Position numbers: made by a program
Origin: Candidatus Aenigmatarchaeota archaeon
GTDB taxonomy: Archaea; Aenigmatarchaeota; Aenigmatarchaeia; CG10238-14; SCSR01
NCBI GenBank assembly: GCA_038999725.1
Contig: JAWBWS010000004.1
Span: forward strand, 10,296-74,295
DNA: 64,000 bases
Reading direction: 5' to 3'
Shown here: in pieces, positions 33,001 through 42,000 of the stretch
Layout: each line of letters begins with the position of its first letter
Position numbering within the stretch: position 1 is the first letter of the stretch

Positions 33001-36000
33001 GAAGTTGTTGTGCTTAATGCTAAAATGGATGGTAAATTTCCTGCTCATGGACCAGATGTAAAGGAAGAAAACTTGAAAGAATTGAAAAAAATGGTTAAAG
33101 AAATTAAAGCAGATTTAGGGGTTTGTTATGATGGGGATGCTGATAGAGCAGCTTTTGTTGATGAAAGGGGTAGAGTTATACAAGGTGATAAGGCAGCTTT
33201 GATTATTTTGGAAGATGTGTTCAGGAGAAAGAAATCTCCAAGAATTTTAGATGATGTGAGTTGCTCTTCTGCTATAGAAGAATATATAAGAAGTAAAGGT
33301 GGTATCCTAAAAACAAGCAGGAGGGGTCACGCTTTTCTTCAACAAATAATGAGAAAAGAAAAAATTGATTTTGGTTTTGAAAAAAGTTCTCATTTTTATT
33401 TTTCAGAGCTAAGAGGTTTTGACGACGCTGCTCTAGCAACTCTGAAAGTAGCCGAAGTCCTCTCAAGAAGCAAAAGAAGTTTTTCTCAAATCGTTAATTC
33501 TATTAACTGGCCTCCAAGCAAAGAAGAAACTTTGTATTGTGATGATGAAATTAAGCTTAAGGTCATTCAAAATGTGAAAAAAGAAATTCGCATACTTGGA
33601 TTTAAAACTATTGAGCTAGATGGGGTAAAAGCCTTCATGCAAGAAGGATGGTTTTTAGTAAGAGCTTCGATAACAGAGCCTGCCATAAGAATTACTGTTG
33701 AGGCAAAAGAAGAAAAAGCATTAAAGGAAATTTTAAGCTTCACAAAGAAGCTTGTGAAGAAAGAAATAAATATATGTTCAGCTAAGGTAAAATGAAGGGA
33801 AGTTTATGATAATCCCTGTTAGGTGCTTTACCTGTGGCAAGCCTATTGGACACTTATGGGAAGAATATAAAAAAAGGGTAGGGATGGGAGAGGATTCAGG
33901 AAAAGTATTGGATAGCCTAGGGTTAAAGCGTTACTGCTGCAGGCAGGTATTTTTGGGTACAGTAGAGCTACTTAGAGAGGTGGAGGAATTCAAACCATAA
34001 TATTTTTAACACTAAATTCAAAAAATATTTACATACTGGTGGTAAAAAATTTTGAAAGATGATGGGATGATATGGCCTGCTGACAGGTTGACGAGATTCG
34101 AGTTTGCAAGGATACTTGGCGCCAGAGCTTTGCAAATTTCTCTAGGTGCACCAATTTTGGTTAAAACTGATGCAACTGATCCAATTGAAATAGCAAAAAT
34201 AGAATTTAAAGAAAAAATGATTCCAATAACTGTGAAAAGAAGGTTGCCCAATGGGGAAGAAATGGTAATAAACATCAAAAAAGCAATGGAAAACTGGATT
34301 GCGGAGCATGGGGAAGAAGATTTAATTTAGATACATCTTGTAAATTTTTTCTACCTGATTGTCTGAAATGAAAAAAGAAAAATCTTGTGAAAGGTTTGGG
34401 TCTTTTTTGCTAATATGAAGGAGAAGTACAATCTCCTTCTTCAAATCTTCTGACATTTTCTCAAATTTCTCTCTTTCTACAGGAGGTACAACCTCAGAGT
34501 AAATGTGGGGATACTTTTCAGCATGAATTGAGGCAAAATCTGGATCACACCATTTTTTGTAATTATCGTATTTCTTAAAGTAAGGGCTCAAGCCCCTAAC
34601 AGAAGGTCTCATATATGATGAACCTGAAGATGCGTGTAAGCTCAATGGACAACCAACAGCACATTTTTTGGAACTTAAAACATCAACCAATATTTTGTAA
34701 TTCCTTCCCCACTCATTTTCTCTTTCAATTGAGAACCTTTTCCTAATTTTTTCTTCCATTTCTCTTACAACATGCACAACTATAGCTTTTCCCAATATTC
34801 TGAGATTTCCATAAGCATTTATTAGCTTTTCATCTTCTATATCCATCGAATTCAAGATTTTTTCATAAGTTTCTGTTGGCTTTTTTAAACCACCTGTCCA
34901 TATGTGAAGGCTTCTGTTTCCAGAAAAATGAACATAACCTTTTATCCCATAGCTATTTAAGAAATTTAAAATTTGAGAAATTACTTCAAAAGAAAGAGCA
35001 TATGCCTTTTGTAGGTCTATTATTTTTAACATATCTCCAATATCAGTCTCTATAACAAAAATTGAAGGAAAATCGTCTTCCTTCTTGTCAACTGAAGTAT
35101 AAATTTGTATCATGTTATATTCTCTCACATATTTTTCAAAATCTTCAGGGCTTTCTGGCGGTGGCAAAAGTTCCTTTCTATATTTAAGCCACATCCTCAT
35201 TTTTGGCTTTTCACATCCTTTGGCCCATTTTATCCTCACATATCTATCCCTACAAAAATTTTTTATGACTTCTTGGACTATGGGCTTAGAGTAATATTTC
35301 AATAACTTTTCTTTGTCGACCCTCATGTCAAAAGCTGAAAATCTTTCAGTTTCTGGTAGTGGTGAATCGTAAACCACTTTTCTTGTACCATCTGTATCAA
35401 AAACAATTCTCAATCTATTCTCAACATTCCAGCCCCAGTCTTCTGGAAGTAAAATAGCGAAAATTTCAGTCATTATGTTTTTCTTGAATCTATCTAAACC
35501 TCCTCTGTAAGAACTTGTGAAAGAAACTGGTAAAAATGAATAGTTCTCATCTGCTTCGAATGAAACTTTCAGTGGAATCTCTTGTCTTCCAGGCTTGTTT
35601 TTTCTACCAAAGAAATAAGGTATAAAAATTTTATACAAGCTCTCCCTTATTTTGTTCATATTCTCTATATTTTTTCTCTCAAAAGCTGCACAAAATTCAA
35701 TCGTGTAATTAACTTTATTCCTGAATTTTTTCTCCTGCCAAAACTCGTCAATTTTGTTGTAGAGGAGAGAAGTTAATTCTTGTAAGTTAAAACATTTTCC
35801 AGGCTCTTTTTTAAACCTTGGTCTCAACCTTGTCTTCCCCTTTATTTTTGCATGTATTTAGTCAGTTTGTTATCTTTGGATGAATACTCTAACCTTAAGA
35901 GAGGTGAGAGAGGTTTAAGCCTCTCCATCAAATATTCTATGTAAACGTTTATATCAATTTTACCTTTAGGTTTTTCTGAGAAATCTATTCCACTGGTAGT

Positions 36001-39000: not shown

Positions 39001-42000
39001 TGAAGAATTTGACTTGACAAAAAAACTCTTGGAAAGAAAGCCTGGTGATGAAGAGTATATGATGTGGGGGATATCATCACCTTATTTTACAGGCCAATAT
39101 TCTCTGGACATCAACAATGTAAGAAGGTACCACATGGGAATGTTAGAAAGAATAATCAGGAAAAAAATAAACAGCGAGAAAATTGAAGTGGTTTATGGTA
39201 CCACATTAACAGGTGAGAGGTTAAAAGACAAAAAGCTACTCAAATTCTTCGAAAATTGGCTTGACACGGATATAGACTCTATAACTACAGTTTATGCTAC
39301 TCCAGTCCCATGTAAAAAAGGTAGCATCGTTCGAGAATATAATGACGAAGAGTTTTGCAGCAAGGAAGAATATATTAAATGGAGAGAAAGACAGAAAGAA
39401 TCGGATATTTGGAGATTAGAAGAATATGTGGATGAAAGTGGAATACAGCCTTGGACTGGTATAATTCAATTAATTCAATCGAAAATTGAAGAAGAACTCT
39501 ATCCACCCAAATTGATGATAAGAGAAATAAATTTAGAAAGTTCGGATTATCATTTTAGCTATTTAACCAGAACCCCCGTGGAAAATATTTTAAAAGATGA
39601 TATAGATGAAGAAATAAAAAATAAGAGAATAATCACAAAATCTGGAAAGGGGGGAACAATAGAAGAGTTTGGAAAAATTGGCAGCCTTATTCACGATTGT
39701 AGAAGATATTGTTCCATAAGCTGTCATGATTTTACAAAATTCACCGAAGTTCCTCTGGAGTTAAATGTCTCCTATGGGGGGTATAAATACAAAATTTCTG
39801 GAATAAGTGACATAATCCTGGAGACAGGAAAAGGCAAACTCCATGTATGTAACACAAAGTTAGAGGCAAGCTATTTCCCACCACGAGGCCAAAGAATGCA
39901 AGTTCTTGCAGAAGCTCTTGCCGCTATGCAATTGTTTAAAAAAGAGTTAGATAGTGTAAGTTTGTACTATCACACAAGTGTTTTAAGGGAGGGCATTCTT
40001 TTTGTGTTTTTCCCAACCCAAGAACAACAGCAAAAAATTCTCAATGAAATTGGAAAAGAGGTGTACGATTACTTTCAGATGAAGGAAAATCCCAAACTGA
40101 TACCAGAATATTTTTCAAAATATAAAAGATGGATGAAAGATCCTGAGCTTGTTAAAAAAATTATAGAAAAAAGATTAAATATAACCTTTTAATCACATTT
40201 TTTCCAAAGCTTTTATTCCAAGAAGTTCAAGGACCTTATTCAAAACAATTTTTGTTGCCTTCACAAGAGTAAGCCTGAAGTTCCTCTTCTCTTTCGTCTC
40301 AGCCTTGAGAACAGGATTTGTCTCATAAAATCTTCCAAAAATCGTGGCAAGTTCGTAAGCGTAGTTGCAAATGTAGTGTGGTTTTAAATCTCTTCCAGCT
40401 TCTTCCACAACCTTCTTAAATCTTGCTAATGTTCTTATCAGTTCTTTTTCTCCTTCTGTTAGTTCTTTTGTTTTGAACAGTAACTTAAACTTTCCAGCTC
40501 TTCTCAATATTCCCACACATCTTGTATGAGCATATTGCAAGTATGGTCCTGTATCGCCTTCTAGCCTAAGCATTTGGTTCCAATCAAAAGTTATGGTCTT
40601 TTCAGGCTCAATTCTTACAATAGCATACTTCAAAGCTCCTATTCCCACAGCCTCGGCAATTTCCTTCTTTTCTTTTTCGGAGAGGTTGGTCCTCCTCTTC
40701 TCAATTTCCTTCAAGGCGGTTTCCACAAGCTTGTCTACAACTTCATCAAGCATTAAAGCTTTACCCTCTCTGGATGACATTTTTCCTTCAGGTAAGTGAA
40801 CAAGCTCAAAAGCAAAATGTTTGCAACCACTAACCCACTTGTAGCCAAATAACTCCAAGAGCTTGAAAAGTTGTTTAAAATGAAGGTTTTGCTCGGTTGC
40901 AACAACCCATATGTGACTGTCAAGCTTGTACTTTTCAAACCTTTTAACAGTCATACCCAAATCACTTGTTATGTACAAGCCGGTGCCATCCGACCTTAAC
41001 AAAACTGTATCAGGTAAGCCAAACTTCTCTAGCCTAGACAAGACTGCACCATCTTCCATTTTAGTCATAATTCCTCTCTTCAACCCTTCTTCAATTAGTT
41101 TCTTTCCAAGCTCTCTGAACTCACTCTCATAAAAATAAACGTCAAAGTTTATTCCCAACCGATGATAGGTTTCTTCAAACCCCTTAACACACCACCCAAC
41201 TATTTTCTTCCATATTCTTCTTATCTTTTTGTCTTTTTCCAATTCAAACTTCCTCAAAATTTCTCTTGCCTTTTCTTCTAGACTGGGATTAGTTTTGGCT
41301 TCTTCATGAAACTTAACATAAAGTTTCCAAAGCCAAGCATCAGGCTTTCCTTCTGGTTCCTTTCCTTCTGCCCAAAGCAAGTAGGCTGTGACGAGTTTAG
41401 CAACTTGAAGGCCAATATCATTCATCAAGTTAGCTCTTATCACTTTATACCCCAAAAACTCCAAAATCCTTGCAAGTGAATCACCAAGGAAAGTGCCTCT
41501 TGCATGCCCTATGTGCATGGAATGCACAGGATTTGGCTGAGAAAACTCAATCATCACTTTCTTCCTTTTCCTTGAAATTCCTTTTTTCATCACTTCCTTC
41601 AAGACAAGTTCTGAAACTTTCTGGTAATCCAGAAAGAAATTTAAGTAGCCCGATCTTGCCTCAACCTTTGAAATTAAAGACCCTTTTGGGATTTTTATCT
41701 TTTTTACCAGATTTTCAGCTATTTCATTTGGGTTTCTTTTTTCTTTTTTAGCTAGATCGAAACAAGGAAAAGCTATATCACCGAATTCTTTTACCTTTGG
41801 GACTTCCAGTTTTAATTCTTCTATTCCTGCTTTTTTCAAAATTGCTTCTATTTCTCTTTCAATCATATAATCAAATTGTTCAAATAAAAATAAAATTCTT
41901 CAAAAGGTTTAAAGCTCTGTCATTCTGATATTTTACCCTGGTTTTATAAATCCGGTTTTTGTGCAAAAAAATATTTTTTAATGGTTAAGCCAATTCTCGC

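Follow-up and report, generated by a model that had tools for sequence, protein, structure and literature searches.

The conserved unit at this archaeal locus is a pair of divergently oriented genes, one for a 763-aa homologue of family B DNA polymerases (PolBs) and one for a 670-aa protein whose model ends in a Cas4/RecB-type PD-(D/E)xK nuclease. A third gene, encoding what its sequence identifies as a Prim-Pol-type archaeo-eukaryotic primase (AEP, 501 aa), is a facultative member. The genome-wide survey's note had taken all three as one conserved triad, which fails: the pair is intact without the AEP gene in two lineages (four genomes). We give roughly even credence to the view that the genes form a domesticated two-nuclease module for DNA-end processing with an optional Prim-Pol.

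Three intact ORFs occupy 34322-40192 of the window (the whole 64,000-nt stretch of DNA analysed), exactly where the survey had placed them:

34322..35827, minus strand: predicted AEP (Prim-Pol type) gene, 501 aa, TTG start (ORF, hhalign, Pfam, Atlas)
35842..38133, minus strand: PolB-like gene, 763 aa, full-length family-B architecture (ORF, profiles, model)
38134..38179, no strand: divergent intergenic spacer, 46 nt, between two start codons (five lineages compared)
38180..40192, plus strand: nuclease-protein gene, 670 aa (ORF, alignment, model)

In every genome seen, the locus is flanked by rpoK and argS. Pfam has no match at E<=0.01 to the 763-aa and 670-aa proteins and only LigD_Prim-Pol for the 501-aa protein (E 0.0062 at residues 282-311; 16.6 bits against a cut-off of 27.4), as the survey reported. 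NCBIfam gives sub-threshold matches only (ligD_pol, E 0.094; cas4, E 0.0057). The three fold assignments made in the survey nevertheless stand, and the 763-aa protein is indeed a third PolB, because Pfam recognises exactly two others in the genome. The source is a small hot-spring archaeon.

The PolB-like protein

The 763-aa protein is a true family-B polymerase homologue. A profile of its family (10 sequences) has matches at E<0.001 to 13 PolBs of solved structure (3.2e-5 for the best), and its alignment to solved archaeal enzymes takes in motifs B and C as well as the KKxY/thumb region. A fragment of a genuine PolB comes up at E 5.7e-4 in an exhaustive profile search, and three of the four weak genome matches of the profile are genuine Pfam PolBs. 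The earlier description of a lineage so divergent that profiles miss it thus holds for Pfam, whose thresholds exclude all ten members, but not for all sequence profiles, since solved PolBs come up with the family's own at E 3e-5. An hhalign comparison over the full length with 28 genuine PolBs (E 0.0077, probability 5.1 %) served for motif placement and not as proof of homology.

Our AlphaFold2 model (8 sequences) has pLDDT 55.5 and pTM 0.50, against 74 and 0.70 in the survey, but Foldseek again gave family-B polymerases for all 50 listed among 198 matches at E<=0.001 (best 4flv, E 4.7e-12, TM about 0.30). VIA aligns model residues 8-751 with residues 1-754 of a PolB chain at Z 16.2 (400 aligned, rmsd 17.0), and the N-terminal plus exonuclease half at Z 13-14.8 (rmsd 4.3-5.2). 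In the palm and fingers the model is of low confidence (pLDDT under 50 at residues 385-507 and 585-642), and residues there were placed by sequence alignments. The motifs are as follows:

37600..37608, minus strand: ExoI D176-Y-E178, invariant in 10/10, aligned with D-I-E of genuine PolBs
37366..37380, minus strand: ExoII region E252...D256, both positions acidic in 10/10
37048..37062, minus strand: ExoIII H358-x3-D362, invariant in 10/10, aligned with Y-x3-D
36763..36786, minus strand: motif A remnant K450-G-R-W-I-Y-P-S457, Asp in 0/10
36454..36468, minus strand: motif C remnant Y556-L-S-P-L560 (hmmsearch to KOD and P. abyssi PolB, hhalign, motif table)
35845..35871, minus strand: C-terminal tail N-K-L-T-K-Y-M-Q-K, possible degenerate PCNA-binding (PIP-like) motif

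By these residues the protein has lost the polymerase carboxylates, and it is predicted to keep a complete DEDD-type 3'-5' exonuclease site. T174, D176 and E178 are invariant, as noted earlier; E252 or D256 is the candidate catalytic ExoII carboxylate, and ExoIII has His where PolBs carry Tyr. The motif A Asp is replaced by K, E, Q or T, both Asp of motif C (Y-x-D-T-D in PolBs) are gone in all ten members, and one of the ten keeps the motif B Lys. Even two members only 29 % identical follow this pattern. The survey had placed motifs A and C by eye; HMM alignments agree with that placement, and its reading of lost carboxylates beside a retained exonuclease motif now extends to 10/10 members. 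All eight close members carry (K/R/T)(L/I)T-x-Y-(M/F/L) within the last 2-4 residues, a tail that resembles the PCNA-binding tail of archaeal replicative PolBs and may be a degenerate PIP motif.

With archaeal replicative PolBs (KOD, Pfu, P. abyssi; B1/B3) the protein shares length class, collinear domain order and ExoI-III, and motif A Y-P-S, motif B Asn, KKx and thumb align. It differs in that motif A has lost its Asp, motif C both of its Asp and motif B its Lys, in having His in ExoIII, and in its low identity (about 11-15 % in structural alignments). PolB2/Dpo2 (B2) is likewise an additional PolB paralogue whose polymerase site has degenerated, but with the reverse pattern: its exonuclease motifs are degenerate (ExoI not conserved, ExoIII missing) and one motif C Asp is kept (passages of PMC7544198), whereas the 763-aa protein keeps the exonuclease motifs and has lost the motif C Asp. 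The PolB2 gene has uncharacterised partner genes next to it, and a role in repair is presumed (PMC4104785). Its partners code for an inactivated RadA and arCOG07300, and neither a Cas4-like nuclease nor an AEP is among them. In the C-terminal module of eukaryotic Pol epsilon the PolB fold was kept as a scaffold after polymerase loss (PMC7544198), but there the polymerase and exonuclease sites are both inactivated and an active PolB is fused to the module, whereas the 763-aa protein stands alone with a predicted intact exonuclease site.

The nuclease protein, the AEP and the shared spacer

Further features of the locus are:

38402..39181, plus strand: residues 75-334 of the nuclease protein, alpha/beta domain, function not assigned (model and structural matches)
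39536..40189, plus strand: residues 453-670, predicted Cas4/RecB-family PD-(D/E)xK nuclease domain (VIA, Foldseek, PADLOC)
39851..39859, plus strand: (D/E)xK motif, N558-T-K560, codon AAC (alignment)
35042..35050, minus strand: AEP motif I E260-T-D262, aligned with D-I-D of the paralogue, invariant in 4/4 members
34904..34924, minus strand: AEP motif II S302-G-N-R-S-L-H308, the same stretch as the Pfam LigD_Prim-Pol match
34682..34684, minus strand: AEP motif III Asp D382 (family and paralogue alignment)
38151..38162, no strand: palindrome TTAAATATTTAA, centred 23.5 nt from each ATG, invariant

The modelled nuclease domain is matched by VIA to the AdnA nuclease (Z 11.6, rmsd 4.0, 180 aligned), Exo5 (11.4), type I-C Cas4 (10.9) and SSO0001 (10.7), by Foldseek to 4ic1 (E 1.4e-6), and by PADLOC Cas4_II (E 1.6e-4). 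The AddB nuclease domain is, like that of AdnA, among the best structural matches, and Cas4-like proteins from archaeal viruses also occur among the matches. Fold and RecB motifs (G-x-x-D, D-x-K) are shared with Cas4 (SSO0001, type I-C), these viral proteins and ACE1. Unlike Cas4, the domain lacks the four-Cys Fe-S cluster (its only invariant Cys are C511 and C557), is preceded by about 450 residues without assigned function, scores below the curated Cas4 cut-off, and occurs in a genome where no CRISPR-cas was found. Where the window copy reads N-T-K, all six other members have D-T-K; this Asn at the acidic position may compromise the window's nuclease, or it may be a base-calling error. The alpha/beta domain (pLDDT mostly 73-92 at residues 131-290, 47-65 at 91-130) best matches 2q07 (AF0587, function unknown; Z 8.6, rmsd 3.2, 139 aligned), the remaining matches being generic Rossmann-like at Z about 5.

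The AEP family aligns with the genome's Pfam-certified LigD_Prim-Pol protein over 213 columns (hhalign, Prob 95.8 %, E 7.2e-9), including motifs I-III and S-x-H...G, and Atlas matches it to viral AEP clusters (score 0.94) that are 82-100 % viral. It differs from LigD Prim-Pol/PolDom AEPs by additional regions at the N terminus (about 175 aa) and the C terminus (about 85 aa), by E-x-D as motif I and by its score below the Pfam cut-off; no ligase or Ku was present among the window neighbours scanned by Pfam. The gene forms an operon with the PolB-like gene, whose stop it follows on the same strand after 14 nt in the window and 7 nt in metagenome locus L051, and an AEP N-terminus also follows the PolB-like gene on contig C9.

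The spacer between the PolB-like and nuclease genes is 46 nt long in four of five lineages and 45 nt in one. The palindrome is identical and centred in all five, whose proteins are only 44-58 % identical, while the flanks vary; the 730-kb genome holds three copies, with about one expected. It is a putative shared bidirectional TATA box or operator, from which the two genes appear to be co-expressed. The strict partner of the PolB-like protein is the nuclease protein, with which it shares this palindromic promoter.

Distribution and selection

Among 370 genomes of the phylum, genus g1 alone has full-length PolB-like matches (the source genome and four of seven sister genomes), confirming the restriction to one genus claimed earlier. 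The nuclease protein is matched in the source genome and six of the seven sisters, including one remnant with two stops and one copy cut by a contig end; because that end cuts the locus, the genome concerned has no PolB-like match. The lineages with the pair and no AEP gene are G002 and the species of G003, G005 and G006. Their 525-615-nt spacer contains no AEP remnant (best tblastn E 0.39), and no AEP of this type was found elsewhere in G002 or G005, two other genomes among the five searched having a match. G004 keeps the AEP beside mere remnants of the other two genes; since one genome lost it, the pair is dispensable. All three genes have NG86 dN/dS values of 0.08-0.30 (dS is saturated), and the PolB-like and nuclease genes are under purifying selection, AEP-less lineages included. 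Module dN is about twice that of the adjacent PGM gene.

The survey regarded the PolB-like protein as a proofreading partner of the primase-polymerase. This cannot be its core function, because the pair persists without the AEP and the AEP survives alone in G004. A split replicase is accordingly unlikely, in which the AEP would synthesise and the dead PolB would supply proofreading and a DNA/clamp scaffold in trans, in the manner of DP1 for DP2 and of epsilon for Pol III alpha. The close spacing in the window and L051, the arrangement on C9 and the intact AEP catalytic motifs all suit it, and the PolB-like protein keeps precisely the activity that the AEP lacks; but the AEP-less lineages, with neither a remnant in the spacer nor a copy elsewhere in G002 or G005, and the reverse situation in G004 argue against it, and the strictly linked nuclease protein is left unexplained.

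Function and origin

In DNA-end processing, the reading we prefer, the vertically inherited, genus-restricted module would have two co-expressed proteins as its constant core. The PolB paralogue would not polymerise; it would provide the exonuclease site and a DNA-binding scaffold (N-terminal domain, palm, fingers, thumb), and cleavage or resection of the other strand or end would fall to the C-terminal Cas4/RecB domain. The pair, perhaps as a physical complex, would be a two-nuclease machine with DNA ends or primer-template junctions as its substrates, serving in repair, recombination or the destruction of invading linear DNA, and the downstream Prim-Pol, where present, would fill in or restart synthesis. 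The logic resembles that of AddAB/AdnAB by functional analogy only: two nuclease activities lie side by side, one of RecB/Cas4 type, but the second is here a DEDD domain inside a PolB scaffold, and no helicase/ATPase motif was recognised in the three proteins. The genome has a NurA homologue and so probably possesses a canonical end-resection nuclease, for which the module is no obvious replacement.

Because the PolB-like and nuclease genes share a promoter and a Prim-Pol adjoins them in some relatives, the set looks like a tamed mobile-element replication module, most likely derived from replication-recombination genes that the ancestor of the genus acquired with a virus or plasmid. The viral AEP clusters and viral Cas4-like matches make such an origin, already put forward in the survey, plausible, and we retain it as a suggestion.

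Defence against viruses or plasmids, with the two nucleases degrading invading DNA and the Prim-Pol as an accessory, seems to us quite unlikely. The genes do change at about twice the rate of the housekeeping genes beside them, one genome has lost the module, AEP content varies, the module's sole library match is PADLOC Cas4_II, and Cas4-family nucleases occur in defence contexts, as does the Argonaute-associated ACE1 among the structural matches. Yet the locus is fixed between rpoK and argS, its Pfam-identified neighbours are not defence genes, PADLOC is blank for the PolB-like and AEP proteins, the genome yielded neither Cas1 nor a Pfam Cas4, and no sensor or regulatory component is apparent.

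Continued polymerase activity of the 763-aa protein through non-canonical metal ligands is very improbable. Calling a PolB dead from its motifs has failed before, since PolB2/Dpo2, long called inactive, proved to be an active translesion polymerase despite its substitutions, and piPolB is active without the first motif C Asp (both from passages of PMC7544198). Six of the ten members have Glu at the motif A Asp position, E495, D596, E610 and D626 are invariant, and the motif A Y-P-S and thumb motifs are retained. Against this, all three canonical carboxylates are missing in 10/10, the residue at the motif A position differs between members, and hardly any member keeps the motif B Lys; we know of no active PolB lacking all three carboxylates.

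A decaying relic of an integrated mobile element without host function deserves hardly any credence: the narrow distribution, the gene content typical of mobile elements, the decay in G004 and the Asn of the window's nuclease would suit it, but terminal repeats, a tRNA target, an integrase and Cas1 were looked for and not found, 2.9 million viral contigs gave no match, the ORFs are intact across such divergent lineages with dN/dS of 0.30 or less, and the promoter element is invariant.

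The locus and its flanks

An ORF check returned the three genes singled out in the genome-wide survey's note at exactly the coordinates given there. The genome comprises 729,769 bases in nine contigs and is 93 % complete; the window corresponds to positions 10296-74295 of its contig C4. The genes code for a Prim-Pol-type protein (AEP), a protein related to family-B DNA polymerases (PolB-like) and a protein with a nuclease domain (nuclease protein).

34052-34330, Rpb6/RpoK gene (Pfam E 1.2e-8), overlapping the end of the AEP gene by 9 nt
34322-35827, minus strand, AEP ORF, 501 aa
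35842-38133, minus strand, PolB-like ORF, 763 aa
38180-40192, plus strand, nuclease-protein ORF, 670 aa

Both flanks are housekeeping genes: phosphoglucomutase (PGM) and Rpb6/RpoK on the AEP side, and on the other side an arginyl-tRNA synthetase gene (argS) that directly adjoins the stop codon of the nuclease gene. Pfam assigned to the 501-aa protein LigD_Prim-Pol alone (E 0.0062, 16.6 bits against a cut-off of 27.4) and nothing credible to the 763-aa and 670-aa proteins. NCBIfam gave sub-threshold matches only, and PHROGs none for any of the three.

Homology, fold and motifs of the PolB-like protein

The 763-aa protein is genuinely homologous to the family-B polymerases and belongs to a tiny family. 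A homology search among 5.8 billion proteins yielded seven clusters at E<=0.001, the query included, and a profile searched exhaustively against 1.84 billion representatives yielded six matches. Two of these six (P0017 and P0018) are full-length distant homologues, only 29 % identical to the query; another is a partial sequence from a genuine PolB with the motif YGDTDS (E 5.7e-4). Searched against all PDB sequences, a profile of ten family members found 13 PolB sequences of archaea below E 0.001, the best of them at 3.2e-5. In the reverse direction, Pfam PF00136 matched 0/10 members and PF03104 a single one, at E 0.028. The profile was also run on 370 genomes of the Aenigmatarchaeota, the DPANN phylum to which the closest homologues and the related genome records are assigned. 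Outside the genus it found four partial and weak matches, three of which are Pfam-certified PolBs.

The AlphaFold2 model is poor (pLDDT 55.5). In a Foldseek search with this model, 198 matches passed E<=0.001, and the best 50 listed are all PolBs. VIA-align matched model residues 8-751 to residues 1-754 of a PolB chain with Z 16.2 over 400 aligned residues, the rmsd of 17.0 being due to a different domain orientation; the N-terminal plus exonuclease half gave Z 13-14.8 and rmsd 4.3-5.2 over about 270-340 residues. By VIA, Foldseek and full-length hhalign, the N-terminal, exonuclease, palm, fingers and thumb domains are collinear with those of PolBs. Since contig C1 carries two ordinary PolBs, the 763-aa protein is the third of this genome, as the survey had counted it. 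The genuine 900-aa PolB on C1 (locus L009, 1267-3969) has a Cys-rich C-terminal segment, C-x2-C ... C-x2-C, which fits the Zn-binding C-terminal domains of Aenigmarchaeota group B6 PolBs described in passages of PMC7544198. The 827-aa PolB of the genome ends in a canonical-looking PIP box.

Motifs were placed by hmmsearch alignments to the KOD and P. abyssi PolBs and by a full-length collinear hhalign alignment to 28 genuine PolBs of related genomes (E 0.0077); the hhalign probability is only 5.1 %, so that this alignment was used for register and not as proof of homology. Counted over ten members, P0017 and P0018 included, the family keeps all three 3'-5' exonuclease motifs: D176-x-E178 of ExoI (10/10), an acidic pair E/D252 and D256 in the ExoII region (10/10), either of which may be the catalytic residue, and H358-x3-D362 of ExoIII (10/10). 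The polymerase motifs are altered. At the Asp position of motif A (DxxSLYPS) the members carry K, E, Q or T, and none an Asp. In motif C all ten have Y-x-(S/N)-P-(F/L) instead of Y-x-D-T-D (YxDTDS), so that the Asp pair is gone. The Lys position of motif B (Kx3NSxYG) is occupied by S in eight members, E in one and K in one. The Y-P-S of motif A, a KKx motif and the thumb are still recognisable. The survey's reading by eye, that the polymerase Asp had been lost and ExoI kept, is thus borne out by the HMM alignments and the ten-member motif table.

Passages of PMC4104785 and PMC7544198 describe the archaeal B2 group by degenerate exonuclease motifs, one motif C Asp and an operon with an inactivated RadA and arCOG07300. 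The PolB-like protein does not belong there by its residues, the exonuclease motifs being intact and the motif C Asp absent, nor by its neighbours, which are the AEP, the nuclease protein, rpoK and argS rather than RadA and arCOG07300. All eight close members end in a tail of the form (K/R/T)(L/I)T-x-Y-(M/F/L), and a link to PCNA through this tail is possible. Complex prediction for the genome's PCNA (23-row alignment) with PolB-like residues 694-763, run without controls, scored 0.37, 0.26 and 0.29, a median of 0.29 against a mark of 0.32, values that tip the balance neither way.

The gene pair and its partner proteins

The survey had treated the three genes as one module. The conserved unit is the pair of PolB-like and nuclease genes: in the sister genome G002 and in the species represented by G003, G005 and G006 the order is PGM-rpoK-[PolB-like]-[nuclease]-argS, the AEP gene is missing, and no AEP remnant was found in the spacer (best E 0.39). 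The three genes occur together in the window, on metagenome contig L051 and on C9, a contig of the same bin that ends within the module. In G004 the AEP gene is intact (70 % identical), and the pair is reduced to remnants, corresponding to PolB-like residues 572-599 and 710-761 and to nuclease residues 602-648 (602-650 by profile search), with two stop codons. The argS of G004 (L015, G004:C17, 5724-7592) is 41 % identical to that of the window (622 aa), against 73-82 % in other members of the genus, and the event that deleted the pair may also have exchanged argS for a distant version. G001 gives no PolB-like match because its contig starts inside the nuclease gene. In G007 not even argS was found.

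Contig C9 (5177 bases) carries the module a second time, with proteins 44-53 % identical to those of the window, and also a fragment of argS that shares 73 % identity with the window's gene. Matches with identical values were obtained for metagenome contig L052. Because of this fragment and of L052, a paralogous copy is disfavoured, and C9 is probably a co-binned piece of a related population.

The start codons of the pair lie 46 nt apart (45 nt in one lineage). In the spacer the palindrome TTAAATATTTAA is identical in 5/5 lineages while its flanks vary, and its centre in the window is 23.5 nt from either ATG. This geometry suggests a bidirectional TATA box shared by two leaderless genes, or an operator. 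The 12-mer has three genomic copies against about one expected, at the window locus, on C9 and at one unrelated site. The last precedes a gene for a class II aminoacyl-tRNA synthetase and is probably due to chance, and we do not take the palindrome as the mark of a regulon.

The model of the 670-aa protein, built from seven sequences, has a pLDDT of 70. Its residues 453-670 match nucleases of the RecB/Cas4 family by VIA: the AdnA nuclease (Z 11.6, rmsd 4.0, 180 aligned), Exo5 (Z 11.4), type I-C Cas4 (Z 10.9) and SSO0001 (Z 10.7). Foldseek matched the domain to 4ic1 (E 1.4e-6). Viral Cas4-like nucleases match the domain as well. At the sequence level, agreement with a Cas4/RecB assignment is weak: PADLOC gave Cas4_II (E 1.6e-4) and Cas4 (E 1.5e-3), TIGR00372 gave E 0.0057 (16.5 bits against a curated cut-off of 65), and the family profile matched 9iab (E 0.09) and 4ic1 (E 0.11) in the PDB, alongside an unrelated match at E 0.065. 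Pfam matched neither this protein nor any of the seven family members, and PF01930 was not found in the genome. The domain combines the RecB-type PD-(D/E)xK fold with its motifs, G541-x-x-D544 and D558-T-K560. D544 and K560 are invariant; position 558 is Asp in all six other members (6/7 overall) and Asn (codon AAC) in the window copy. Cas4 carries a four-Cys Fe-S cluster. This cluster is absent here, since only two Cys are invariant within residues 453-670.

Upstream of the nuclease domain, residues 75-334 form an alpha/beta domain with AF0587 (2q07, function unknown) as best match (Z 8.6); its other structural matches are generic, and our literature search on AF0587 found nothing relevant. 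Residues 334-450 are modelled with low confidence. For the N-terminal 450 residues, the family profile gave no match in the PDB, no conserved P-loop was seen by eye, and an Atlas score of 0.83 to helicase-like clusters is inside the chance range.

The 501-aa protein is an AEP of the Prim-Pol clade with apparently intact catalytic residues. Its four-member family aligns by hhalign to a 355-aa protein encoded elsewhere in the genome (probability 95.8 %, E 7.2e-9, 213 columns), itself a Pfam-certified LigD_Prim-Pol (E 1.3e-24). Invariant in 4/4 members are E260-x-D262 (motif I), S302-G-x-R-S-x-H308 (motif II) and D382 (motif III), as well as S396-x-H398...G402. By its features, Atlas placed the protein near AEP clusters of viruses (score 0.94), with which it shares 170-174 features; against the PDB, sequence searches with the family gave unrelated matches only (E >= 0.5). 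The 355-aa protein, a second and Pfam-recognisable Prim-Pol AEP, is encoded on contig C2 (11353-12420; L017 2354-3421), between genes for RtcB and a type II/IV secretion ATPase. It has an N-terminal winged-helix region, Gln at the usual motif II His, and an apparent orthologue in G007.

Possible role and alternatives

Full-length matches are confined to this genus among the 370 phylum genomes (170 genera). Nei-Gojobori (NG86) dN/dS is 0.08-0.24 for PolB-like, 0.11-0.30 for the nuclease, 0.10-0.15 for AEP and 0.11-0.16 for PGM, ratios that are rough because dS is saturated (>1); for two ArgRS pairs, and for three pairs of nuclease or PGM genes, no value could be computed. The dN of the module genes is about twice that of PGM, and on these values the genes are functional and evolve fast. 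No relative was found among 2.9 million viral contigs. The locus lacks the marks of a casposon or another self-synthesising mobile element: the genome (93 % complete) shows no Cas1, the flanks hold AT-rich imperfect repeats but no convincing terminal inverted or direct repeats, no tRNA lies near the locus, and its position is the same in all genomes compared. We reject a replacement of missing end-resection genes, since NurA is present.

We give an even chance to a domesticated two-nuclease module for the processing of DNA ends or junctions. The PolB-like protein, a polymerase fossil, would bind DNA and trim its 3' ends, the other strand would be processed by the Cas4-type domain of the nuclease protein, and the Prim-Pol AEP would be an optional enzyme for fill-in or restart; repair or defence might be the service rendered. 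A bolder and rather unlikely version makes the PolB a dedicated exonuclease and junction scaffold, which would form a two-nuclease machine with the Cas4-type protein and proofread for the Prim-Pol where present, that is, a split replicase with synthesis by AEP and editing by PolB. If true, it would offer a present-day parallel to the reshuffling of subunits from which eukaryotic polymerases have been proposed to arise, and a two-nuclease machine of PolB scaffold and Cas4-type protein would be previously unseen.

The split replicase as the survey proposed it is unlikely, and is left as a side role in lineages that have the AEP. We consider a defence system similarly unlikely. That the PolB-like protein is still an active polymerase is very improbable. 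One caution is that, according to passages of PMC7544198, PolB2/Dpo2 was likewise called inactive from its motifs and later shown to be an active translesion enzyme; that precedent, however, retains one motif C Asp and the PolB-like family none. A functionless relic is scarcely credible. The retention of about 6 kb of accessory DNA in a 0.73-Mb DPANN genome argues for real use.

Inactivated PolB paralogues are already known, namely PolB2 and the C-terminal half of Pol epsilon (passages of PMC7544198). In these the exonuclease site has degenerated as well, or polymerase activity came to light later. With three polymerase carboxylates gone and every exonuclease residue kept in members down to 29 % identity, the family suggests that a PolB scaffold can take on the role of a nuclease. 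What defines the gene pair is its strict linkage, by way of a common, putative palindromic promoter, between the PolB-like gene and a Cas4-type nuclease gene. In literature searches and in the passages of PMC7544198, PMC4104785 and PMC4046053 covered here, we found no PolB group with such a motif pattern, nor a pair of PolB-like and Cas4-type genes. We rate the protein as a further case of an inactivated or repurposed PolB paralogue. The reach of the finding is limited by the narrow distribution of the module and by its still putative function. Aenigmatarchaeota have been noted for unusual PolB/PolD rearrangements (passages of PMC7544198), and the module adds another case to the polymerase oddities of this phylum.

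The G+C content lies near 35 % and reaches 46-54 % in the rRNA genes. The 16S rRNA gene (54256-56609) spans 2354 nt against a model of 1478 positions and hence holds an insert of about 880 nt. A 178-aa ORF (55312-55848, plus strand) without Pfam match lies inside the gene, and a possible explanation is an intron that carries a homing-endonuclease gene in degenerate form. The 16S and 23S rRNA genes are separated by 5.2 kb (56609-61793), with a tRNA at 59443-59514 and an H+-pyrophosphatase gene on the opposite strand (57357-59378) between them. Two further tRNA matches, at 3569-3663 (95 nt) and 50891-50996 (106 nt), have lengths that suggest intron-containing tRNA genes.
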